64,000 nucleotides of DNA, from contig CAWEYG010000005.1 in the NCBI GenBank assembly GCA_963813155.1, forward strand, positions 75,524 through 139,523. The letters run 5' to 3'. The DNA comes from an uncultured Acidobacteriota bacterium. GTDB taxonomy: Bacteria > Acidobacteriota > Thermoanaerobaculia > UBA5066 > DATFVB01. The translations under genes and the position numbers were made by a program. Under the pieces are notes generated by a model. The model saw only the letters and a program-made list of their open reading frames with translations, made no database searches and was not told the origin of the DNA. The first letter of the stretch is position 1. Each line of letters begins with the position of its first letter. Positions 175 to 54,344 of this stretch are shown here, piece after piece.

Positions 175-237
175 GCGGGCGCCGCTTTCAAGGGTCGCCG
201 GGCTCGGGTCTCGCCGCGCTTCGCGGATAATTCCCTC

Positions 238-1593
238 ATGAGGCCCTCTCGAGCCGCCGACCTGGACACGATTGTCGCCGCGGCGACTCCGGCGGGGCGC
301 AGCGCCCTCGCCCTCGTGAGAATTTCCGGCGGCCGGGCGCTCGCGGTCCTTCGTTCCCTCGCGCCGGGGCTCGCCAGGACTCCGCGCGCGCGCGTCGCGA
401 GGCTCGTCGAGCTTCGCGATCCTCTCGGAAATCCGTTCGACCGGGCTCTCGCGACGTACTACCCCGCACCGAACTCGTATACCGGCGAGGACGTCGTCGA
501 GATCGCGATCCACGGAAACCCGATTCTCGTGCGGAAGCTTCTCGCCGCCTCGGCGGCCGCCGGCGCCCGGGAGGCGGAAGCCGGCGAATTTTCGCGGCGC
601 GCGTTTCTCCACGCGAAGCTCGACCTGACGGAAGCGGAATCGGTGCAGGGAGCTGATCGACGCGAAGACCGAAGCCGCGGCTCTCGGAGCTCTTCGCCGG
701 CTGTCGGGATCGCTCTCGGGGCGTCTGGGACGCGTGCGAGAGTCCCTCCTTCTCGCGGTGACGCTCTGGACCGCGTGCGATCGATTTTCCGGAACAGGCG
801 GGCGAGGAAGATCCCGGCGCGATCGGCGGGCATTCTCGGGGACGCGCATCGCGAGCTGTCGGACCTCCTCCGCTGCGCGGCCGCGGGCGCGCGCGTGTCT
901 TCCGGCGTGCGGGTCGCGATCGTCGGGCCGCCGAACGCCGGAAAGTCGACGATCTTCAACGCGATGCTCGGTCGCGACCGGGCGATCGTGACGCCGCACC
1001 CGGGAACGACGCGCGACACGCTCGAAGGAGAGATCGAGCTGGAAGGCCTTTCGATCGTCCTGATCGATACGGCGGGGCTTCGGGAGTCCGCGGAGCCGGT
1101 CGAGTCGGAGGGAATCGTCCGGGCGCGCGACGAGGTCGAGCGAGCAGACGTCGTGCTCTACGTCCGCGAGGCGGGGGAGCGGTGGACGGCGGACGATCGC
1201 GATTTCTGGAGCGGCCTTTCGGGGAGGCCCCGGCTGCTGGTCTCCAACAAGATCGACATTCGCCTTCCCGAGCCTTCGGAGCCCGGCGTTCGCGTGTGCG
1301 CGCTGTCGCCGGACGCTCCCGCGGTCCTTCGCGCGGCCGTCGCCGGGATCCTGCGCGAGGACTTCCACGCCGAGGCTTCGACGCAGGTCGTTTCCGGGCG
1401 CCAGCGGGATCTTCTCGATCGCGCCGAAAAGGAGGTTGTCCGGGCGCTCCGGTCCCTCGAGGGGCGCGCCCCGGCCGAAATCTCGGTTTCCCACGCCGAG
1501 GAAGCCCTTGGAATCCTGAGTGATCTCGTGGGGGAGACGACGACCGAGGACGCCCTCGACCGGCTCTTCTCCCGTTTCTGCATCGGCAAATGA
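238..1593 (+). CDS. mnmE: tRNA uridine-5-carboxymethylaminomethyl(34) synthesis GTPase MnmE. The full-length ORF is open, but residues ~140-195 are out of frame (three compensating single-base indels)
   Basis: N-terminus [23 protein letters not shown]-domain [27 protein letters not shown]...DTAGLRE, C-terminus CIGK*. In the middle the conserved MnmE residues sit in other frames: [20 protein letters not shown] in +1 and [13 protein letters not shown] in +2. Confidence 0.85.
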
Positions 1594-3503
1594 AGACCGA
1601 TTTCGACGTCGTCGTCGTTGGCGCCGGGCACGCGGGTTGCGAAGCGGCCCATGCGTGCGCTCGAAAGGGGCTCTCGACCCTGCTGTTGACCTTCTCGAGG
1701 CGGACGATCGCGAAGATGTCGTGCAACCCGGCGATCGGGGGAGTCGGGAAGGGGAATCTGGCGCGCGAGGTCGACGCGCTCGGCGGCCTGATGGGGACCG
1801 TCACCGACGCGGCCTGCATCCAGTTCAAGATGCTCAACCGCTCGCGCGGGCCGGCCGTGTGGGGCCCCCGTGCCCAGTGTGACAAAGAACTTTATAGCAC
1901 AAAGATGACGGCGCTCCTCGACGCCACCCCGCAACTCGCCATCCGCGAAGGGAGCGCTGTCGGATTCCTGGAGTCCGCGGGCCGGATCGGCGGCGTTCGG
2001 CTCGAGAGCGGCGAGACGATCCGGTCCCGGGCGGTCGTCGTCACGACGGGCACGTTTCTCGCGGCCCGGATGCACGTCGGCGCAGACCAGAGCGAGGGCG
2101 GACGCGTCGGCGAGCGCAGCGCGACCGGGCTCTCGGACGCGCTTCGGGCGCTCGGGCTCGAAATCGGAAGGTTTAAGACGGGGACTCCTCCGCGCGTCCG
2201 GCGCGACTCGGTGGAGACTTCGAGGTGCGAGCCGGCCCCCGGCGAGGATCCCCCGGTGCCGTTCTCGTTCCGGACGGCGAGGATCGACAATCCCCAGGTC
2301 CTCTGCTGGCTCACGGCGACAAACGAGCGGGTCCACGGAATCATCCGCGAGAATCTGGACCGGTCGCCGCTGTACGCCGGAAGAATCCGGGGGCTCGGTC
2401 CGCGCTACTGTCCGTCCATCGAGGACAAAGTCGTGAAGTTCGCCGAGAAGGATTTCCACCAGATTTTTCTCGAACCCGAGGGGCTCGCTTCCGAGGAGAT
2501 GTACATCAACGGTCTTTCGACATCGCTTCCCGAGGACGTCCAGCGCGCGATCCTGAAGGAAATCCCGGGCCTCGAAAACGCGGTGATGATTCGGCCCGGT
2601 TACGCCGTCGAATACGATTTCTGTCCTCCGCTTCAGTTGAGGACGACGCTCGAATGCCGCGACGTCCCCGGCCTGTACCTCGCGGGTCAGATCAACGGTA
2701 CATCCGGATACGAAGAGGCGGCCGCCCAGGGATTCTGGGCCGGAGCCAACGCGGCGCTCGCGCTGTCGGGGGAGGATCCTTTCCTTCCGCGCCGGGACGA
2801 AGCGTACTGCGCCGTCCTCGTCGACGACCTCGTGTCGCAGGGCGTCGAGGAGCCGTACCGGATGTTCACTTCGCGCGCCGAATATCGCCTCCTGCTCGGA
2901 GTCGACACGGTGCTTCCGCGACTGCTCGGACATGGAAAGAGGCTCGGGCTGATCTCCGACGTCGAGTACTCGGAGGGCCTGCGCGGGGAAGAGAAGATTC
3001 GGACGTCCGGCAACCGCCTGCGCGAGAAGCGGCTCGTTCCCGACCGTTCGACGCTCGACGAGCTGTTGGAGCGAGGCGCGCCGCCGATCTCTGCGCCCGT
3101 GTCGCTGTTCAAGTACCTCCAGAGGCAGGATGTCGATTGCGACATTCTCTCCCGCGTCGTCCCCGGGTTTCTCGACACTCTGAGCAGGGACGAGAAGTCG
3201 GTCCTCGAGTCGCGGGTGAAATACGAGGGATACATCGTGAAGGAGAAAGACCGGGCGCAGGCCCTTTCCCTCCTGTACGGGGAAAAGATCCCCGCCGATT
3301 TTCCCTACTCGGAGATCTCCGGACTCTCGCGGGAAGTCGTGGAGAAATGTTCGCTTCGGCGCCCGCAGACGCTCGCGGAGGCGGCGCGGATCCCCGGCGT
3401 CACGGCCGGGGCGATCGCTATACTCGCTTCCCATGTCTCCAAAGTCCAAAAGACGGCTCGACGAGAGGCGGGTTCGCGCGGCCCTCTCCCGAATCGCGCC
3501 TGA
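1590..3503 (+). CDS. mnmG: tRNA uridine-5-carboxymethylaminomethyl(34) synthesis enzyme MnmG (GidA)
   Basis: [27 protein letters not shown]...[10 protein letters not shown]; 637 aa; ATGA overlap with mnmE. Confidence 0.93.
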
Positions 3504-4083
3504 GCTCGGCCTCGTCCTCGACGAGCCCCGGATCGCGCTTCTCCTGGCGTTCCTGACGGAGCTGTCCGTCTGGGGGGAGGCGACGAATCTGACCGGGAAG
3601 CTCTCCGACGAAGACCTGGCCTTCCACTGTCTCGAATCCGCCTGCGGCGCGGACCTGCTGGAGCCGGGGGAGACCGTCCTCGACATCGGGTCCGGAGCCG
3701 GTTTTCCGGGGATTCCTCTCGCCATCTGGCGGGTCCGAATTACCCTGCTCGAACCCCGCGAGCGACGCGCCGCTTTCCTTCGGCACGTGCTGCGCGCCCT
3801 GGGTGCGGGCTTGAACGCCGAGGTTCGAGCCGATAGAGTGGAGAGACTCCCGGATCCCGCATTCGACTCGGCGACGGTACGCGCGGTCGGCGGTTTCGGA
3901 GCCACGGTGGGGGAGGCGAAATTCTTGAAGCCGAACGGGAAACTGCTGATCTGGACAAGCGATGCCGCACGGTACGAGCGGGATCTCGCTCCCGGGTTCC
4001 GCCTCGAAAAATCGCGCCCGATTCCGACCTCCCGAACCCGGGAAATCGCGGTCTTCCGGAAATGTTCCACGGGGAACATTTGA
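3433..4083 (+). CDS. rsmG: 16S rRNA (guanine527-N7)-methyltransferase RsmG (GidB)
   Basis: SAM motif [16 protein letters not shown]. The only in-frame start is ATG 3433, giving a 71-nt overlap with mnmG. Confidence 0.8.
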
Positions 4084-4099
4084 GCCGCTGAGGGCGTTG

Positions 4100-4849
4100 A
4101 TGGGCCGAACCGTTGCGCTCGCGAACCAGAAGGGTGGCGTCGGGAAGACCACGACCGTGATCAATCTCGGCGCGGCCCTCGCGAGCCTCGACCGCCGCGT
4201 CCTGCTCGTTGACGTGGATCCGCAGTCGAACACGACGTCGGGCCTCGGATTTCCGAAGGACAACGACGGCGGGACGGTCTACGACGCGCTCCGGGGAGAG
4301 CCGGTCGCGATCAAGCCGACCGCGTTCCCGAACCTGTTTCTCCTCTCGTCGACCCGCGAGCTCGTCGGCGCCGAGATCGAGCTCGTCGACGTGCCCGACC
4401 GCGAGCGCCGTCTCGCCGCGGCGCTCGACGCGGTCAAGGGAGACTTCGACTTCCTCCTCATCGACTGCCCGCCCTCTCTCGGGCTCCTGACGCTCAACAG
4501 CCTTTGCGCGGCGGACGCCGTGCTGATCCCGATCCAGTGCGAGTATTTCGCGCTCGAAGGGGTGACCGACCTCATGGAAACGATCGATCGCATTCGCGCG
4601 TCGTTCAACGGCCGGCTGGAGATCGAAGGCGTCCTGCTGACGATGTACGACGAGCGGACGAACCTGTCGAGGCAGATCGTCGACGACATCCGCTCGCACT
4701 TCGGGCCGAAAGTCTACCGATCCGTGATTCCCCGCAGCGTCCGGCTCGCGGAGGCGCCCTCGTTCGGAAAGCCGATCCTCGCGTACGACATCAAATCGAA
4801 AGGCTCCGAGGCGTACCTTGCGCTCGCGGCCGAGGTGATCGGCTCATGA
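4100..4849 (+). CDS. parA: Chromosome partitioning ATPase ParA/Soj
   Basis: Deviant Walker A motif MGRTVALANQKGGVGKTTTVINLGAALA; start chosen at the internal ATG 4100 of ORF 3962-4849. Confidence 0.9.
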   Translation: MGRTVALANQKGGVGKTTTVINLGAALASLDRRVLLVDVDPQSNTTSGLGFPKDNDGGTVYDALRGEPVAIKPTAFPNLFLLSSTRELVGAEIELVDVPDRERRLAAALDAVKGDFDFLLIDCPPSLGLLTLNSLCAADAVLIPIQCEYFALEGVTDLMETIDRIRASFNGRLEIEGVLLTMYDERTNLSRQIVDDIRSHFGPKVYRSVIPRSVRLAEAPSFGKPILAYDIKSKGSEAYLALAAEVIGS

Positions 4850-5706
4850 GCCCGAAGCGACAGCCCCTGGGCCGCGGCCTGTCGGCGCTCCTGCCGGGGA
4901 AGGAAGAAAAGCGCGACGAATCGGGCCGGCGGGAAGTGGAGATTGCGAAAATCCGGCCGGGCCGATTTCAGCCCCGCGTCCAGTTCGACGCCGGAGCACT
5001 GACCGGCCTCGCCCAGTCGATCCGCTTGAACGGCGTCGTCCAGCCGATCCTCGTCGCTCCCGCCGAAAACGGCGAATTCACGATCATCGCGGGGGAGCGC
5101 CGTTTCCGGGCGGCGCGGGAGGCGGGCCTGACCCGCGTGCCGGTCATCGTGCGAACCCCCCGCAACGATGAAGAAAGGCTCGAGCTCGCGCTGATCGAGA
5201 ACATCCAGCGCGAGGACTTGAATCCGATGGAAGAAGCCGCCGCCTACGGCCGTCTTCGCGAAGAATTTCACCTGACGCAGGAAGAGATCGCGGAAAAAGT
5301 CGGTAAAGATCGCTCGACGGTGGCTAACTCATTAAGAATCTTACGTTTACCTTCTACTGTTCGCGACCTCCTCCGAAACGGAGCTCTCAGCGCGGGCCAT
5401 GCGAAGGCGATCGCCTCCCTGTCGTCGGCCGACGACCAGACTCGCCTGGCCGAGGAGATCGTCCGACGGGCGCTCTCCGTGCGGGCGGCGGAAGCCCGCG
5501 CCGCCGCGATGGCCGCTCCTTCCCCGGGCGTTCGGAAGGAAAAGAGGCGCGATCCCTTCAGCCGCGACGCGGAAGAGAAGCTCGCGCGCCGGCTTCATGC
5601 GAAAGTGCAGCTGCGCCGCAAGCGGCGCGGGGGCTCGATCTCGATTGATTTCGGATCGGAGGAAGAATTGATCCGCCTGTTCGAAATCCTGATGGGGAAA
5701 CACTGA
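4846..5706 (+). CDS. parB: Chromosome partitioning protein ParB/Spo0J
   Basis: ParB box LRPGRFQPRVQFD...GERRFRAAREAGL and HTH VANSLRILRLP. ATGA overlap with parA at 4846-4849. Confidence 0.9.
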   Translation: MSPKRQPLGRGLSALLPGKEEKRDESGRREVEIAKIRPGRFQPRVQFDAGALTGLAQSIRLNGVVQPILVAPAENGEFTIIAGERRFRAAREAGLTRVPVIVRTPRNDEERLELALIENIQREDLNPMEEAAAYGRLREEFHLTQEEIAEKVGKDRSTVANSLRILRLPSTVRDLLRNGALSAGHAKAIASLSSADDQTRLAEEIVRRALSVRAAEARAAAMAAPSPGVRKEKRRDPFSRDAEEKLARRLHAKVQLRRKRRGGSISIDFGSEEELIRLFEILMGKH

Positions 5707-6050
5707 TGTCATCGAAAAAACCGGGCGACGGAGTTCTGAACGGGTTTCTGGACCAGGGAAGCCGCTTCAAAGGAGAGCTTTCCTTCGACGACACGCTGAG
5801 GATCGACGGAAAGTTCGAGGGAACGATCCGGTCGGCGAATCAGCTGATCATCGGCGAGACTGCCGACGTCAACGCGGACATCCAGGTGGGAAGCGTGTCG
5901 ATCGACGGAACGGTCCGCGGCACGGTCGTCGCGAAATCGAAGATCGAGATCCACCCCCATGGAAAGGTGTTCGCGCAACTCAACTCGCCGATTCTGAAAA
6001 TCGAGGAAGGCGCGCTCTTCCAGGGCGCGTGCACGATGGAATCGAAGTGA
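5706..6050 (+). CDS. Bactofilin (CcmA-like polymer-forming cytoskeletal protein)
   Basis: Repeated beta-helix pattern IDGKFEGTIRSANQLIIGETADVNADIQVGSVSIDGTVRGTVVAKSKIEIHPHGKV, typical of bactofilin DUF583. ATGA overlap with parB. Confidence 0.8.
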   Translation: MSSKKPGDGVLNGFLDQGSRFKGELSFDDTLRIDGKFEGTIRSANQLIIGETADVNADIQVGSVSIDGTVRGTVVAKSKIEIHPHGKVFAQLNSPILKIEEGALFQGACTMESK

Positions 6051-6143
6051 GGCCGGGAACCCGGCGCCCGCGCCATTGCGCGGGCCTTCGGAGTCTGATA
6101 TCAATGCTCGGTTTTTTCGAATCGCTCCGGAAGGAACTCTAGA

Positions 6144-6578
6144 ATGCTGCAGGCCCCCAACGTCTCGATGCTCCTGATCCTGGCGATTTTCTTCGCCGTG
6201 CTGTGGCTTTTGAACCGTTTCGTTTTTCGGCCCGTCGGCGCGATCCTCGACGAACGGGAGAGGGAGACGACGACGGCCTCGCAGGCCTACGCCGGGGCCC
6301 TCGCGGAATTCCAGGCGGCGGCGGACAAGATCGAGGCCGACCTGTCGCTCGCCCGCCGCGAGGCCCTCAAGCTTCGGGAAGAGCGGCGCGCCGAAGGTAT
6401 GCAGCTCCGGTCGAGCAAGATCGAGCAGGTCAAGGCGGAAGCCGCCGAGAAACTCTCGGGCGCGAGCGCGGAGTTGGAACTGCACTCTCGAACAGTCGCC
6501 GCCGATCTTCCCGCCCGGGTTGCGGCGCTTGCCCAGTTGCTGGCCGAGAAAATCCTCGGGCGAAAGGTGGCGGCGTGA
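6144..6578 (+). CDS. atpF: F0F1 ATP synthase subunit b' (first of two b-type subunits)
   Basis: N-terminal TM helix LLILAIFFAVLWLLNRFVFRPV followed by a long charged coiled coil; position ahead of delta. Confidence 0.75.
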   Translation: MLQAPNVSMLLILAIFFAVLWLLNRFVFRPVGAILDERERETTTASQAYAGALAEFQAAADKIEADLSLARREALKLREERRAEGMQLRSSKIEQVKAEAAEKLSGASAELELHSRTVAADLPARVAALAQLLAEKILGRKVAA

Positions 6579-7150
6579 GACGCGCGCGACTCGCGCTCGC
6601 GGCCGGCTGGACGGTGCTGCTCGCGTTGCCCCTTCGGGCCGCGGAAGAGGCCGCCGCGCCGGAGAAATTTCTCGGTCTTCCCGTCGAGCTCTGGAAGACG
6701 GTGAATCTCCTGCTTTTTCTCGGGATGCTCGTCTATTTCCTCGGCAAGCCGTTCAACCGATATTTTCGGAAGCGGCGCGAGGACCTCGACGCGCTGCTGG
6801 ACAAGGCGAAAACCGACCGGGAGCAGGCTTTGACGCTCGCGGCGGAGATGCGCACGCGGCTTTCGAAGCTCGAATCCGAGATCGCGGAGATCCGCGCCCG
6901 GGGAGCGGTAGACGGCGAGGCGGAGAAGGCCGCCCAGCTCGCGGCGGCGGAGAAAGAGGCAGAAAACCTGCTTCGAAACACGGCGGAGGAAATCGACCGC
7001 CGGCTCGCCGCCGCGAAACAGGAGCTCGCGCGGGCGGCCTCGGACCTGGCGGCGTCGCGCGCGAAGGAGATTCTCGCCGGTTCGATCACGGACGAGGACC
7101 GGAAACGTCTTCTCGACGACAGCGTCCAGAAGATCTCGCGGATCCAATGA
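6575..7150 (+). CDS. atpF: F0F1 ATP synthase subunit b
   Basis: GTG start overlapping the previous stop; TM helix LLLFLGMLVYFLGKPF plus coiled coil; same frame as ORF 6203-7150. Confidence 0.7.
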   Translation: MRRARLALAAGWTVLLALPLRAAEEAAAPEKFLGLPVELWKTVNLLLFLGMLVYFLGKPFNRYFRKRREDLDALLDKAKTDREQALTLAAEMRTRLSKLESEIAEIRARGAVDGEAEKAAQLAAAEKEAENLLRNTAEEIDRRLAAAKQELARAASDLAASRAKEILAGSITDEDRKRLLDDSVQKISRIQ

Positions 7151-7675
7151 GCGCGCGATTCGCCAGACCCTACGCGGCCGCGCTGCTCCAGACGGCGCCT
7201 CCGAACTATGATTTCGGGAGTTTCCTCGCGTCCGTTCGCGCGATCGCCGACGCTCTCGCGGCCAGCGGCAGCCTGAGGTCGATCCTTTCGAATCCTTCGG
7301 TTGCGTTCGCGGCCAAAGAGGGGATCGTCGAGGCTCTTTCCGAGAAGGCGGGCCTCGACACGACTGGCCGAAGGTTCCTCCAGGTCGTCCTGCGGAACCG
7401 GCGGTTCCTCGGCCTGTCGGAGATCGCGGGCGCGATCGGAGAGGCGCTCGACGCGCGGGAAGGCGTCGTCCCGGCGAGCATCACCGCCGCGGGAGTGCTT
7501 GCCGCCCCCGACGCCGACCGCGTTGCCGCGGCCCTGTCGGGCGCGGTCGGAAAGAAAGTTCGCGCGACCTTCGAAGTCGACGCGAACCTCCTCGCGGGCT
7601 TCGTGGCCCGCGTCGGATCCAGGATCTACGACGCCTCCGCCCTCGGAGCGCTCGAAAAATTTAAGGAAGAAACGC

Positions 7676-7686
<11 letters not shown>
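7147..7686 (+). CDS. atpH: F0F1 ATP synthase subunit delta (OSCP)
   Basis: [17 protein letters not shown]...; ATGA overlap with the b subunit; located upstream of alpha. Confidence 0.8.
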
Positions 7687-9208
<1,522 letters not shown>

Positions 9209-9218
9209 CCGGCAGACG

Positions 9219-11550
<2,332 letters not shown>

Positions 11551-12056: not shown

Positions 12057-13659
12057 TCAGCGCTCCGACACGTCGTAGGCGCACATGCGCTCCCCGCACT
12101 TTTCGTTGTTGAGCCTCTTGCGGCTCCATTCTTCCAGCTCGGAGACCACGGCGTCGCGGTCCTTGTAACGCAGGACGAGCAGTTTCTCGCCGGTGCGGAG
12201 CCCCTTTGCGGAGTCGGTGATCACGGCCGGGCGGTCGGTGTAGTACTCGAACAGCGGTCCCTGGAACCACTGGTTCAAGGGCGTCTCGGAGATCGGAACG
12301 AAGACGAATCGGGAGAAGGTGTCGTTGCGGAGGGAAGAGAGGAACTCGATGTCCGATCGTGTTCCGAGCTGGTCGTCGAGCACCTGGGCGTACGCCGCTT
12401 TCGCGGCGGAGAGGAGATAGAACGCCAGGGCCGCGCAGCCGATAACGGTTCCGGCGAGCCCGGAGCGGCTGCGACCGAGAGACGCGGCGAAGCCGGCGAC
12501 GAGTGCTGCGATCGGCAGGCAGAACCAGTACTGCCAGTACAGATGAATGAAGCTTCCCTCCCGGAACGCGAAGAGCCAGACGCAGGCGACCGCAAGCGTC
12601 GTGAAAAAGAACACGGCCAGGCCGGGTCGGGGCGGCGCCGAAGAAACCGGAGCCCTTGCGCGAGAACGCCTTTTCCAGAGCCATGGCCCCGCGAGGGAGA
12701 GCGAGAGAGCCGCCACAATCCAGGGGACGGCCGGGGTGAAGTTGCTCTTCGCGTAGGTCCACTGGCGCGCCCACCATTCTGCGGCGGGAATCGACGCTGC
12801 CCGTTCGGCGAACGAGCGCGCCAGAGCGCCCCTTGCGCTCGCCCAGGTCCCACGGATGGAGATCAGGAGGCCGGCCAGCGCGGCGACTCCGCCCAAACCG
12901 GATAACGCCGTGGTCGTCAGAGCGCGCTTCGCTTTCGGATCGCCGGTTCGCAGCGAGGCCGCGAGGAGGTACGCAGCGATCGCACCCGCGAAGAGTGCGC
13001 CCGTCCAGTGCGCGAGGATCGCGAGGCCGACCGCAACGCCGTAGAACGCGAGCGCGCCCTTCGTCCCCCTGCGAAAATAGGCGGAAAGAGCGACGAACAG
13101 CCAGACGCCCGCGAGCATTCCGTCCGTCTCGAATTTCACGCAGGTCTGGTAAACGGCGAACAGCGGCAGACAGACGAGCGTGACGGCGCCGGCGAGCGAA
13201 GCCATCAGACTTCCCGTCGCCTGGAGAAAGATCGCGTAGGTGCCGGCGGCGGTCGCAAACGAAATCGCGAGATAGAACGCGCGAGCAGCCCACTCGGGGG
13301 TTCCCGTAATCTTCGTGAATTGCTGGAAAACGGTCTTCACCAGGAAGGGATGATCGGTGTAGTAGGTCGGATTCCCCCGCCGTTCGCCCCACCTCGAGTA
13401 GGCGTTGACCGTGACTCCGAACTGCGACCGGAGGTCCCCATTGCGGTTGCCGTTTCGTGCCCGGAACAGATAGTCGGCGTTGTCGTAGTTGTAATGCAGT
13501 CGGGTATCGAGAAGAGGAAGATTCAGTTTGTCTCCGCAGGTCGCGACCTGAAGGGCGAGGATCAACGCCAGGGAGAACGCGATTCCCGCGGCTTTCTTGC
13601 GTTCTCGATCCGGCCGCGCGAGGGCATGTTTCTCGTGGCGGATCGCCTTTCGCGTCACG
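12057..13659 (-). CDS. Integral membrane glycosyltransferase family 39-like (PMT/ArnT-like) protein; start inferred at a GTG that overlaps the upstream stop
   Basis: About 12 predicted TM segments (AFYLAISFATAAGTYAIFL, LAGVWLFVALSAYF, LYWQYWFCLPIAALVAGF, ...). The N-terminal 200 codons of ORF 12057-14309 overlap the S9 peptidase gene and look non-coding. Confidence 0.55.
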
Positions 13660-20135: not shown

Positions 20136-20816
20136 ATGGCCGACGTCTTCGAGGAACGCATCGCGCAGGAGGCGCACCTGTACGCGGACGTGTTTCTGCC
20201 GGACGGGGTCGCCCGCCCGCCGCTCGTGATCGCTCTCCACGGCTACGGCGGCGACAAGGTCTCGATGATGAAGCTCGCGCGCCGGATTTTCCGCGACGAG
20301 CTGGCGATCGCGAGCCTGCAGGGGCCGCATCCGCACGTGATCTACCCGAAGGATCGCTCTCAGCCTCTCGGGTTCGGGTTCGGCTGGGTGACGAACTTCC
20401 GGCCGGACGAGTCGATCGCTCTGCACCACGGAGCGGTCCTGGAGTTGCTGTCGCGCCTCGGCGCGCGCGGCGCGATCGATCCGGCTCGCGTTTTCCTGCT
20501 CGGCTTCTCCCAGTCGGTCGCCGTGAACTTTCGGTTCGCGTTCACCCATCCGGAGATCGTTGCCGGCGTCGTGGGGATCTGCGGCGGGATCCCGGGGGAC
20601 TGGGGTGCGGCGGACAAGTATCAAAGCGCGGCCTTCGACGTGCTCGTCGTCGGCGGAACCCGGGACGAGTTCTACCCGCCCGATCGGGTTCGCGCGAACG
20701 CGGAGAAGCTGCGCGAAAGGGCTCGCGCTGTCGAGACGCTGATTCTCGAGGCCGGCCACGAGATCCCGCCCGGATCACAGGAGCCGATCCGAGACTGGGT
20801 GACGCAGAGGCTCTGA
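20136..20816 (+). CDS. Alpha/beta hydrolase (phospholipase/carboxylesterase-dienelactone hydrolase family)
   Basis: PLVIALHGYGGD...LLGFSQS nucleophile elbow...GTRDEFYP...EAGHEI. Confidence 0.75.
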   Translation: MADVFEERIAQEAHLYADVFLPDGVARPPLVIALHGYGGDKVSMMKLARRIFRDELAIASLQGPHPHVIYPKDRSQPLGFGFGWVTNFRPDESIALHHGAVLELLSRLGARGAIDPARVFLLGFSQSVAVNFRFAFTHPEIVAGVVGICGGIPGDWGAADKYQSAAFDVLVVGGTRDEFYPPDRVRANAEKLRERARAVETLILEAGHEIPPGSQEPIRDWVTQRL

Positions 20817-21379
20817 TGGCGGCGCTTCTCTCCCATGCGGTCGCCGGCGCCGGAATCGCGGCGGCGCTCCGCCCGAGCGCGCGTCCCCCCGCTCGCTACT
20901 GGGCTCTCGCGGTCCTGTGCGCCGTCGTGCCGGACTTCGACATCGTCGTCGTGTGGATGGGCACGAACTACCTCGGGATGTTCGGCCACCGGGGTTTCAT
21001 GCACTCGATTTCCTTCGCCGCGGCCCTCGCGGCGGTGCTCTCGTACGGCGCGTTTTCGTCGCCGCGATGGCGGGAGCTGCGGTTCCGTGCCGGAATCGCG
21101 TTTTTCTGTCGCGGGCGTTTCGCATGGAATCCTCGACGCGATGATGAGCGCCGGAAGAGGAGTCGCGTTTTTCGCGCCGTTTTCCCCGTGCGCGTTTTCA
21201 TTTTCCGATCCGGCCGATTCGGGCATCTCCGCTGAGCAGACCACATCCTTCTTCGAGAGGGGGGAATCCGCGTTTCCGCGAGCGAAATCGCCTGGATCTG
21301 GGTGCCTGCCGTGCTGCTTTTCGTTCTGGCGGCCTGGTTCTGGAGGAGCCGCAAAATGAGAACTATCATCCCGGCATGA
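20816..21379 (+). pseudogene. DUF457 (YdjM-like) membrane-bound metal-dependent hydrolase, disrupted by at least 2 frameshifts
   Basis: Frame 2 GHRGFMHSISFAAALAAVLSYGAFSSPRW matches YdjM GHRGFTHSLL...VPEGW. Frame 0 VPESRFSVAGVSHGILDAMMSAGRGVAFFAPFS matches IPADALQGMVLGYLSHILADMLTPAGVPLLWP. The C-terminal TM helix EIAWIWVPAVLLFVLAAWFWRSRK is back in frame 2 and ends in an ATGA overlap with the next gene. Confidence 0.7.
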
Positions 21380-45387: not shown

Positions 45388-46713
45388 TCTTCCGTGGAAA
45401 GATGATCCAGCGGGCCTGGCTTTCGCTCGCCGCGGCCTGGATTTTCGCCGCCGCGGTGCCGGCGACGGCGCAAACGCCGTCCGCGCCGAAACCCGGTCGT
45501 CCTGAAGGCTTCGCGGATCTTCGACTCCCGCACCGGGCGGATCTCCTCGCCGGGTCTCGTCGTCGTCGAGGGCGGGAAGATCGCCTCGGTCGGCGGCTCG
45601 GCGCCCGCCGGAGCGGAGGTCATCGACCTCGGGGACGCGACGCTCCTGCCCGGTTTCATCGACGCGCACGTTCATCTCACGGGCGAGTCGTCCGAAAACT
45701 GGTTTCGCGATTTTTACCAGCGGGTCATGCGGTTTCCGGCCGAGCAGGCGCACTACGCCGCGATGTACGCGAAGCGCACCCTCGAGGCGGGGTTCACGAC
45801 CGTCCGGGACGTCGGATCCGGCGACTACCTCGCGATGGGACTCCGCAACGCGATCGAAGCCGGCGTCGCGGAAGGGCCCCGGATGCTCGTCTCGAACTAC
45901 GCGATCGGTGCGACGGGCGGCCACGGCGACGGAGCGCCCTTTCCGCCCGACCGCGTGAAGCCCTCCGGCCCGATCGAGGGAGTCTGCAACGGACCGGCGG
46001 AGTGCCGCGAGGCCGTTCGATATCAGATCAAGTACGGCGCCGACGTCATCAAGTGCATGCCTTCGGGGGGCGTGCTCTCGATCTCGGACCCGGTCGACGC
46101 GCCCGAGCTCACGCAGGAGGAAATGAACGCGATCGTCTCCGAATCGCACGCCTGGGGGCGAAAGGTCGCCGCGCACTGCCACGGCGACGCCGCCGCGAAG
46201 ATCGCGATCGCGGCCGGCGTGGATTCGATCGAGCACGGCTCCTTCCTGAAACCGGACACGCTCGCCCTCATGAAGCAGAAAGGGACCTACCTGGTGCCGA
46301 CGCTCTACGCCGGCGAATGGGTCGGATCCCATGCGGAGAAGTTTCCCCCCGCGATCGCGGTCAAGGCGCGCGCGGCGTCGGCCGCGATGATGGCGATGTT
46401 TCGCGAGGCGGTGCGCCAGGGCGTGAAGATCGCGCTCGGCACGGACGCGGCCGTCGAGCCGCACGGCGGGAACGCCCGGGAGTTCGTCTTGATGGTCGAG
46501 GGAGGGCTTTCGCCGGCGGCGGCTCTGCAGGCGGGAACGGTCGGAGGCGCGGACCTCCTGGGGATCACGGCGATCGCGGGGTCGCTCGAGGCGGGGAAAT
46601 CCGCCGACGTCGTGGCCGTCCCGGGAAACCCCGTGGCCGACATCCGCGCGACCGGAAAAGTCTTTTTCGTGATGAAAGAGGGAAAGGTCGTCAAGAGCTC
46701 GCGGCCTTCCTGA
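45384..46713 (+). pseudogene. Amidohydrolase family (imidazolonepropionase/Xaa-Pro dipeptidase-like) with signal peptide; +1 frameshift near 45488
   Basis: Signal [30 protein letters not shown] in frame 0; the rest in frame 1 (VVLKASRIFDSRTGRISSPGLVVVEGGKIASVGG...LLPGFIDAHVHL...HCHGD...). An extra C in AAACCC at ~45488 explains the shift. Confidence 0.8.
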
Positions 46714-51467: not shown

Positions 51468-52827
51468 TCAGTCACCCGCTTCATCGTCCCGCACGAAGGC
51501 TCCGGCATCGTCGCGGTCGGCGACGTCCACCGGGTGAACGTACTTTTCGACGTGCCGGCGCGTGTCGCCGGCCTTCAGTTTTTCGAACAGGAAGTCGAAT
51601 TTCGCCTCGAGATCCCGCGAGATCGCGTCTCTCGTGCCGACCGGGAGCGTCCACAGGGCCTCCTTGAAGGGACCGAGCGCTTTCTTTCGCGCTTTGTAGA
51701 GAAACTGTTCCTGCGTTTCGCCGGTCTTGCGCTCGTCGGCGGCGTTGTCGTAGAGCCATCGGTAGATCGTCTCTCGCAGGAGGCCGGGAAGAGCCGGGTG
51801 GTCGAGGATCATGTTCTGGAACCCCGTCGCGAGGTGGATCTCGGCGGCCTCCGCTCGCGGGAAAAGGCCGAAATCGCTCTCCGGCAGCGTCGAGGCGCCG
51901 TGCTGGACCGCGCCCGCGAGGCCGAACTCTTCGCGGGCGATCCGCGAGATCGCTTCGATCGCCGAAAAATCCACCGACATTTTCTTCAGGCTTCCGTCGG
52001 GCGCGACCATTCCGCCGTGGGCGGAACCTGTTTGAATGGACACCTTCGCGATTCCCTTCTCCCCGGAGAGGTTTCCCGAGTAGCCGCGCATGTAGGCGCG
52101 GAATTCCTCCGGGGTCGAGTTCTCCTTGCCCACCTCGCCGATCTCCCCTCCGATGGAAATGGCGACCTCCCGGGGCTGGTGGCGGCGGATATAGCGGGTG
52201 AAGTGGGCGCAATTCTCGTAATTCGGCCGTTGCTGCTCGTCGACCGTGGGCTTCGAGAGATCGACGAGCGTCGACGTGTCGATGTCGATCTGATAGAAAC
52301 GCGCGGCGATCGCCTCCCGGATGAGATCCTCGATCGCTTTCACTTCCCTCGCGGGATCCGCCTTCATTTTCTTCGCGTTCGTCTGGAAGTGATCGCCCTG
52401 CAGGAATACCGGGCCGGTCCATTCTTCGCGCAGGGCGGCGGCCAGGATGACCGCGGTGTATTCGGCGGGCCGCTGGTCGGTGTACCCGATCTCGCTGCGG
52501 GCGATCTCGAAGATGAAGGCTCCCGCCGAGATCCTCTCGGGCGGTTCGAAAGACGGCGCGCGCGCAGTCGTAAGTGAGAGCCCGGAGGTTGAGCGCAGGA
52601 ACGGTGAACCCGCCGATCTCGCCCCGGCCGCGGGCCTCGTAGAGGGGCAGGATCGACGCCGGAAGGATGCCGCGATCGGCCGCGAGACGGCGGATGCGGG
52701 CGCGCGCGGCCCGCTTTTCCGCTTCCCCTTCGAAGACGGCGCTCCAGACCAGGTTGTCGACCTCGCGGGCGCCATAGCGGAGCTCGCCGACGGAAAGCGG
52801 TTCCTTCGACGCCTCGATCGTGCTCAT
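51468..52827 (-). pseudogene. Class II (metal-dependent) ketose-bisphosphate aldolase family protein with one frameshift (extra G near 52530)
   Basis: N-terminal 85 codons MSTIEASKEPLSVGELRYGA...GEIGGFTVPALNLRALTYDCARAVFRTARE lie in one frame; ISAGAFIFEIARSEIGYTDQRP...PVFLQGDHFQ...IQTGSAHGG... lie in the +1 frame. The ATG at 52827 has a GGAGGA RBS. Confidence 0.7.
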
Positions 52828-52889: not shown

Positions 52890-53439
52890 TCAGGGCTTGC
52901 GGAAATTCTCCTCGCTCCACGGAATCGAGACGTTGATCGTGTACTCGCCGCGGCGCTTTCCGGAGAGACGGCGCGAGATCGCGAAAGTCCCGGCCGGGGT
53001 GATCTCGGCAGGAGTGATCGTGACGCTCTGCTCGTCGCCGCTTTCCATCGAGATGATTTCCGTCGACAGGTTCTTCAGGTTCAGGCGCAGGGGATGCTCG
53101 AGTCCCGCCAATCCGATGACTTCCGCCGCGAACGAGGTTGAGTCGCCCGTGTGGATGATCGGGCGCGGCGGGGTCAGTCGAAGGCCGACGGTGCGAAAAT
53201 CCCCCGAAACCCTGTCGGTACCGTTCTGGAATTCGATGCGGGTTTTGCCGATCGGGTCCTTCGGAACGTCGAAAATGCACGCACGCGGCGATTCCGCGAC
53301 GATATGAGCCGTCAGGCCGCCGATCGTGACTGAAGTTTTCGTGAGATCGCCGTCGAACGGGCCGACAACGAGCGCCCGGTTGAAGACGAGGCCCTCGCTT
53401 CGGCAGGATGAAGCTCGGGCTGTTGAGAAGCGTCGTCAC
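52890..53439 (-). pseudogene. Hypothetical beta-rich protein; GTG start overlaps the upstream stop (GTGA), and a frameshift sits in a GGG run ~50 nt later
   Basis: Frame f1 VTTLLNSPSFILPKRG joins frame f2 LVFNRALVVGPFDGDLTKTSVTIGGLTAHIVAESPRACIFDVPKDPIGKTRIEFQNGTDRVSGDFRTVGLRLTPPRPIIHTGDSTSFAAEVIGLAGLEHPLRLNLKNLSTEIISMESGDEQ...NFRKP* when one G is removed. Confidence 0.5.
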
Positions 53440-53849
53440 TTTCGGGAACCGACAGCGTTTGGCTCGGAGATCGCCTTCGCCTCCAGCTCGAGGGTCAACC
53501 AGGAGCCCGTCGACCGGAGACTCCGGGGACAGACGAAGATGCCCATGTCGACCCGAAAAGTCGCGCCGCAGATATCGACGCTCAGCGACTGCAGGGCCGC
53601 GTTGTTCGCGGCGCGCTCGGGCTCTTTCGTTCCCTTCGGGAGCGTCGCGAAGGTCCCCGAAATGTGATCGCCGGGCGCCATGTCGCTCGGAAAATTCGCG
53701 TAGACGTTTCCGAGGTTCGTTCCGAAATTCGCGGAAAGGACTCCCGGGCCGATCTCCACGATGCGCGACTCGATGAGGATCTGGGGAGTCGGTTGTCGAG
53801 CCCCCTTCCATACGCGAAGACAGGCCACATCAAAGCCGCCGACATCCAC
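53436..53849 (-). CDS. Hypothetical protein (137 aa), first gene of a coupled pair
   Basis: MDVGGFDVACLRVWKGARQPTPQILIESRIVEIGPGVLSANFGTNLGNVYANFPSDMAPGDHISGTFATLPKGTK...; protein-like composition, no known motif. Confidence 0.5.
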   Translation of the reverse strand: MDVGGFDVACLRVWKGARQPTPQILIESRIVEIGPGVLSANFGTNLGNVYANFPSDMAPGDHISGTFATLPKGTKEPERAANNAALQSLSVDICGATFRVDMGIFVCPRSLRSTGSWLTLELEAKAISEPNAVGSRK

Positions 53850-53876
53850 GCTCTCTTCATTCGGAACCTCTCCTTA

Positions 53877-54344
53877 ATGCTATCAAGGGAACAGGTTTCT
53901 GCTACGCTTCCCTTCCGTCCGGAGGGAACCTTGATCCGACTTTCCCGGCAAATCCATTTCAACGCCTCCCGCCATCTCTGGCGTTCCGACTGGAGCGAAG
54001 ACCGAAATCGTTCCGTGTTCGGCGAAGAATCCCCCCACGGATACGGGCACAACTATCGTCTGGAGGTGGAGATCGCGGGCGAGATCGACCCGGAGAAGGC
54101 GATGGTCGTGAACCTCACCGATCTCGACCGGATCCTGAAGGAGGAGGTCGACCGCCCCCTCGACCACCGGAACCTCAACCTCGACGTGCCCGGGTTCGAA
54201 ACGACGATTCCGACGTTCGAGAACCTCGCGCGGTGGATCTGGGAGCGCGTTTCGGCGCGGATCGAGAAAGAAAAATGGCCCTGCCGCATTTCGCGGCTGC
54301 GGCTCTCTCCGACGCCGGAGATCACCGTCGAGATCGAGGAGTGA
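53877..54344 (+). CDS. queD: 6-carboxy-5,6,7,8-tetrahydropterin synthase / 6-pyruvoyl-tetrahydropterin synthase family (QueD-like)
   Basis: Catalytic motif ESPHGYGHNYRLEVEI; start could instead be the TTG at 53931 (MIRLSRQIHFNASRHL...). Confidence 0.75.
   Translation: MLSREQVSATLPFRPEGTLIRLSRQIHFNASRHLWRSDWSEDRNRSVFGEESPHGYGHNYRLEVEIAGEIDPEKAMVVNLTDLDRILKEEVDRPLDHRNLNLDVPGFETTIPTFENLARWIWERVSARIEKEKWPCRISRLRLSPTPEITVEIEE

Follow-up and report, generated by a model that had tools for sequence, protein, structure and literature searches.

In the 64,000-nt stretch of DNA analysed here (the window), the mnmE gene carries three extra single bases, which are very probably insertion errors in the consensus of a long-read metagenome-assembled contig. 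We infer that this contig is a long-read assembly, and probably a Nanopore-only one, in which the extra bases would have arisen during basecalling, consensus building or polishing. The true gene would then be an ordinary mnmE of 450 codons, to which the additional bases are foreign, as they would be to the organism's genome as a whole. Each spurious base would shift the reading frame by +1, and three of them in 187 nt would add up to +3, leaving one codon extra. The mnmE frame is restored simply because 3 x +1 equals +3, so that the apparent compensation is a matter of arithmetic only, and under a process that only inserts bases, any three neighbouring events would restore the frame. As the sequence is 65% GC and the wrong frames of mnmE contain no stops, gene callers report one full-length ORF.

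The window opens with the end of a jag-like gene, followed by the mnmE ORF and then by mnmG. In its deposited form, mnmE, which encodes a GTPase of tRNA U34 cmnm5 synthesis, is an unbroken ORF of 451 codons (positions 238 to 1593, forward strand). The gene for its partner, mnmG (1590 to 3503, forward strand), starts within the mnmE stop (ATGA) and is intact, encoding 637 aa. Its identity is supported by an orthologue with GIDA domains in L001, a 7.9-kb JGI contig whose orthologous locus carries mnmG-rsmG-parA-parB, and by a protein cluster shared with named MnmG proteins. The length and arrangement of mnmG are the same in L001, and a DNA alignment with another relative, L084, revealed no indels in this gene.

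In Pfam searches of the deposited MnmE, the TrmE_N domain (PF10396) was matched with 114.5 bits over profile positions 1-117 of 117, and the G domain (MMR_HSR1) with 90.6 bits and with its G1, G3 and G4 motifs. The stretch with the G-domain motifs and the C-terminal FCIGK, an instance of the C(I/L/V)GK motif, are both present in the deposited translation. The helical domain (PF12631) is incomplete, being matched only over profile positions 72-211, with 49.4 bits. Across the shifted part, the deposited frame reads as a string of 63 residues rich in Arg, Ser, Gly and Pro. AlphaFold2 models this region (residues 131-190) with a pLDDT of 33-66 and with helices partly lost, and the same region of the nearest intact homologue, P0001, with a pLDDT of 78-93 and continuous helices. 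Judging from these models, the helical domain would probably be disrupted in a real protein made from the deposited reading. The deposited MnmE (451 aa) is found in a public protein collection together with MnmG (637 aa) and a YdjM-like protein of 139 aa (see below), all from one NCBI/ENA contig of 279,785 bp, so the insertions belong to the deposited record.

The extra bases were placed by aligning the DNA of the window with the relatives L001 (91% nucleotide identity) and L002. All three, on the forward strand, correspond to gaps in both of these, and also in a third relative, L083. The first is an extra A at position 647 (GTGC[A]GGGAG), which moves the frame from 0 to +1; an alternative model for the same site is one extra G in the GGG at 648-650, by which CAG GAG becomes CAGGGAG. 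It is followed by 43 ancestral codons in frame +1 (648 to 776), a frame that is also followed by the GC3 phase and by a Viterbi path computed from codon usage. The second, an extra G at 777 (GCGT[G]CGATC), stands outside any homopolymer and takes the frame from +1 to +2, where translation and homologue comparison locate a further 18 ancestral codons (778 to 831). The third is an extra T at 832-833 (T to TT, GGCA[T]TCTC), which brings the gene back to frame 0. The trio spans 187 nt and leaves 62 codons out of frame (codons 137-199), equivalent to about residues 130-192 of E. coli MnmE, which form the first half of the helical domain.

A preliminary description of this DNA had proposed three compensating single-base indels in mnmE, and the DNA alignment confirms them, all as insertions. 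It had also followed the conserved MnmE residues into frame +1, then +2 and then back to the annotated frame, in agreement with our three-frame translation, which recovers the missing residues at ~650-775 in frame +1, at ~778-831 in frame +2 and thereafter in frame 0. Its figure of ~55 residues out of frame was an underestimate, the count here being 62 codons. It had set the junctions in short G/C runs, but the sites are A647, G777 and T833, of which only the first can be read as a change in a G run; the third, which it had put at GGCGGG, lies ~6 nt downstream at CATTCTC. Positions 648, 776 and 825, suggested by the junctions in that description, were considered as deletion sites and rejected, since the alignment gives 647, 777 and 832/833. 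Because the mnmE insertions fall outside G/C homopolymer runs, they are no classic homopolymer-length errors, and in this detail the earlier account is not upheld.

When the three bases are removed, the gene encodes an MnmE of 450 aa, the same length as in its closest relatives. The Pfam match to the MnmE helical domain then rises from 49.4 to 114.5 bits and its coverage of the profile from 72-211 to 1-211. Since the match becomes complete on removal of three bases, the mnmE DNA encodes the whole domain, out of frame. The NCBIfam model NF003661 (cut-off 380) scores 318.1 for the deposited and 372.0 for the repaired protein, with two matched stretches merging into one, and TIGR00450 (cut-off 252.6) scores 263.9 and 310.8, respectively. 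On repair, the score against the Thermotoga maritima MnmE of 1xzp increases from 233.6 to 275 bits, and that against the E. coli MnmE of 9hip from 205 to 252 bits. By these sequence comparisons, the match of the out-of-frame residues to MnmE is far beyond chance.

No relative shares the insertions. In a search of 5.8 billion proteins, the seven closest homologues (P0001-P0007) are 449-450 aa long and have the unshifted reading; none of the mnmE insertions was found in these proteins or in the DNA of L001, L002 and L083. A scan of genomes yielded one useful relative, L003, with 88% nucleotide identity, and a scan of metagenomes, dominated by generic MnmE peptide patterns, returned only relatives of at most 41% identity, with no contig of the same population. 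Three short metagenome contigs (two from JGI, one from ENA) cover the sites in mnmE and in the ydjM gene described below, and none of the insertions is present in them. Over positions 196-8515 of the window, comparison with three short metagenome contigs of the same provenance (two JGI, one ENA) revealed no further indels.

The succession of frames 0, +1, +2 and 0 gives a perfect MnmE, as would be expected if the normal protein were made through programmed +1 frameshifting by the ribosome, or through transcriptional slippage, at each of the three sites. This would require three successive efficient events. By inspection, the sites GUGCAGGGA, GCGUGCGAU and GCAUUCUCG have no shift-prone motif, and none of the three is accompanied by an in-frame stop, a rare-codon pause or a homopolymer suited to slippage. 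Programmed sites are conserved, but these are kept in no relative. Given that there is no motif and that the sites are absent from all relatives, programmed frameshifting is effectively excluded and hardly conceivable as the origin of the pattern.

The substitutions within the shifted segment show which frame has been under selection. Between the window and L001, 10 of the 62 shifted codons differ; in the ancestral frame, nine of these differences are synonymous and one is non-synonymous, such that the recovered codons specify a single different amino acid. Nine of the 10 nucleotide differences fall in ancestral third positions. In the deposited frame, all 10 differences count as non-synonymous and none as synonymous. 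Codon usage, in the form of the Viterbi path, and GC3 phase likewise track the ancestral frames. The concentration of differences in third positions implies that the ancestral frame was still under selection in the very recent past. As purifying selection thus extends over essentially the whole of the 9% divergence, the mnmE insertions must be either extremely recent or not biological.

The first of these two options, in which the insertions are real and very recent mutations that have made mnmE either a fresh pseudogene or a natural compensated frameshift, is improbable. The deposited sequence itself contains the insertions, and the ORF is intact with its frame restored, so that translation would still yield the G domain and the CIGK motif at the C terminus. 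Compensated frameshifts are also documented as a rare source of protein change (PMC8935012). Three independent +1 events would nevertheless have to pass through two non-functional intermediates, and the counts of dN/dS type (nine synonymous, one non-synonymous) show no relaxation. The helical domain is hit in its conserved core, in the middle of the gene, and this part models poorly in the deposited frame; the insertions are shared by no relative; and mnmG has stayed intact although it would be useless without MnmE. The more specific proposal, that the insertions exist in a living population as a natural triple +1 compensated frameshift rewriting 62 residues of the helical-domain core, is decidedly improbable. 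If the insertions were real, a conserved enzyme of tRNA modification would have undergone a compensated frameshift of an unusual kind, in three steps, with the N-terminal, G-domain and CIGK parts remaining in frame around 62 rewritten residues. The organism would then have either an mnmE that has only just died, next to a mnmG that is intact, or an MnmE that is tolerated in spite of radical change, but the evidence points otherwise.

Consensus error in mnmE is also consistent with what was found in the rest of the window. A codon-usage Viterbi scan of all 64 kb was used to flag frame breaks, which were then checked by homology. All eight single-base indels located in the window are insertions, and at least five such insertions lie outside mnmE, in other conserved genes. 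Three are in a gene for a YdjM-like metal-dependent hydrolase (20816 to 21379, forward strand), where alignment with L169, a JGI contig 94% identical to the window at this locus, reveals an extra T at 21107, an extra T at 21189 and an extra A at 21240. This trio spans 134 nt and repeats the pattern seen in mnmE. The deposited frame ends at 21235, giving the public protein of 139 aa (P0258). Joining the frames raises the Pfam YdjM match from 57.6 to 95.2 bits and restores a protein of 186 aa, as in P0241 and P0242. A different path through ydjM, using the frame-2 piece 'AEQTTSFFERG', was discarded, as homologues and the DNA alignment give +1, +1, +1. Because the stop at 21235 precedes the third insertion, the restoration of the frame in ydjM cannot be due to selection.

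Two further genes have one insertion each. In an amidohydrolase gene (45402-46713, forward strand), an extra C at 45492 (AAA[C]CCGG), a gap in the sister contig L168, parts the signal peptide (MIQRAWLSLAAAWIFAAAVPATAQ) from the catalytic domain with its HxH motif, so that the two lie in different frames. The catalytic frame has no start codon before 45727, and the Amidohydro_1 match begins 29 codons upstream of that point; the orthologue in L168 is intact, with 436 aa. In the gene for a class II fructose-bisphosphate aldolase (51468-52827, reverse strand), an extra base at ~52532 (within 1-2 nt), again a gap in L168, cuts the N-terminal ~100 codons from the remainder. When the two parts are joined, the start of the Pfam match moves from profile position 46 to 13 and the protein has 452 aa; most of its best homologues are exactly 452 aa long with 100% coverage, and the best match has 96% identity, as does P0121. 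A sequence search of the PDB with the joined aldolase returned no match. If all these insertions were real mutations, a free-living bacterium would have acquired a ydjM trio with a stop ahead of the point of restoration, in addition to uncompensated insertions in its aldolase and amidohydrolase genes, which is implausible.

Three other regions flagged by the Viterbi scan were rejected as frameshifts. At 5327-5356 there is no indel relative to L001 or L084, the flag at 12623-12687 is an R/S/P-rich loop inside an intact ORF, and that at ~49862 marks the tail of an ArsR gene followed by the normal start of the next gene. Separately, a segment of ~1 kb (52893-53889, reverse strand) is present in the window and missing from the otherwise collinear L168. 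In the hypothetical protein encoded there, the coding signal crosses an in-frame TGA (53436-53438), and there is a frame blip of 66 nt. A further cluster of insertions, or else a nonsense error, may lie behind this anomaly.

Assemblies of closely related organisms have similar lesions at other places. Among the species-representative genomes, the nearest is MAG MFD00822.bin.2.149, the locus of which (L083; ERZ25039463 contig_116074, 2500-10300) is the relative already used in placing the mnmE bases; identity for L003/L083 is 88-90%. When the window, L083 and the JGI contig were aligned over 7.8 kb, 11 single-base indels emerged, every one of them an insertion: three in the window, eight in L083 and none in the JGI contig. 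The mnmE of L083 has a trio of its own, at the equivalents of window positions 369, 549 and 562, plus a fourth insertion; there, mnmE and mnmG are fused in a single call of 955 aa, and truncation affects rsmG, parA and parB. Another sister contig, L168 (ERZ25039534 contig_84774), is ~92% identical to the window over 41.5-64 kb. In L168, a break at a C-run leaves the phosphoglycerate kinase (PGK) in pieces of 74 and 325 aa, an IF-2B protein is split into 164 + 170 aa, and a zinc ADH is truncated; the window is intact at all three of these genes. According to the project paper (PMC12313526), MFD MAGs come from Nanopore data only, with Flye as the assembler and a single round of Medaka for polishing, and frameshift-causing indels are well documented in Nanopore consensus sequences (PMC9262707). 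Of the two sister assemblies, it is L083, as an MFD MAG, to which this stated Nanopore origin applies. The preliminary description had judged a consensus error likelier than damage to the gene, and that judgement is borne out by the homologues, the substitutions, the other broken genes in the window and the frameshifts in the sister assemblies.

Three features of the data speak against an artefact. Long homopolymers are the textbook context of Nanopore errors, and the insertions lie outside them. They are also strongly clustered: one trio falls in 187 nt and another in 134 nt, and the remaining ~8 kb compared contained none. Such clustering is not what uniformly distributed errors would give, so that local dips in quality would be needed, caused for example by low coverage, strain mixtures or modified bases. 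Finally, substitutions relative to L001 are no more frequent inside the mnmE cluster than elsewhere. Two of these features, the odd clustering and the sites outside long homopolymers, can be cited in favor of real mutations. The clusters with their clean flanks could also be taken to mean that the insertions stem from a consensus built over a mixture of close strains, or from a mis-join, and not from raw basecalling error, and several relatives at ~90% ANI do occur in metagenomes. Mixtures should add substitutions, but the clusters contain neither an excess of substitutions nor a block of altered similarity; in the mnmE cluster, the differences from L001 amount to 10 per 187 nt, not elevated over the 9% overall. 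This origin is accordingly very improbable.

As to modified bases, GATC occurs at 705 sites in the window (11 per kb), ~3.4 times a rough estimate of ~3.2 per kb from base composition. A GATC lies at most 9 nt from four of the five insertions first located, compared with a background of 22% (p ~0.01, with the threshold set post hoc). This hints weakly, and post hoc, at a tie between the insertions and base modification.

Taken as insertion errors in the consensus, the mnmE lesion is not a real genomic feature; it is of low biological interest but serves as a useful flag for the quality of the contig. When a genome is rich in GC, a handful of insertion errors can go unnoticed inside a full-length ORF. 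Where the wrong frames have no stop codons, quality checks based on length, and gene callers, will pass a garbled protein. In this case, a garbled MnmE of 451 aa, with 63 residues affected, already circulates in public protein databases, and on the same contig the ydjM, amidohydrolase and aldolase genes are truncated or split. The MAG would need polishing or frame-aware correction before it is used for metabolic inference or in protein-family alignments.

Compared with characterized MnmE proteins, the repaired protein aligns end to end with the structures 9hip and 1xzp, with three domains and the CIGK tail. The deposited protein differs from E. coli MnmE in that the equivalent of residues ~130-192 is out-of-frame sequence. 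The arrangement of the gene resembles that of the pCFMs (PMC8935012), in which codons lie out of frame between indels that sum to a multiple of three and the ORF stays intact. That study describes pCFMs as paired indels that are enriched towards the ends of genes and occur in genes and regions of lower conservation. In mnmE there are three +1 events, which lie in a conserved domain in mid-gene and belong to one assembly alone, and selection shows no relaxation. Among the closest homologues and loci, the mnmE insertions were not observed in any second genome or assembly of the lineage.

The fit to sequencing error is closer, though not to its textbook form. The textbook Nanopore case consists of length errors in long homopolymers, often deletions, whereas here all eight events are insertions, mostly in non-homopolymer positions or runs of 2-3 nt, and six of the eight in the window fall in two tight trios. 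The insertions do resemble the indel errors of Nanopore-only MAGs (Sereika et al. 2022, PMC9262707; the MFD-LR catalogue, PMC12313526), in which conserved genes are broken or garbled. As with such errors, there are several on one contig, they are absent from the short-read contigs of relatives, and other sites are affected in sister MAGs of a Nanopore-only project.
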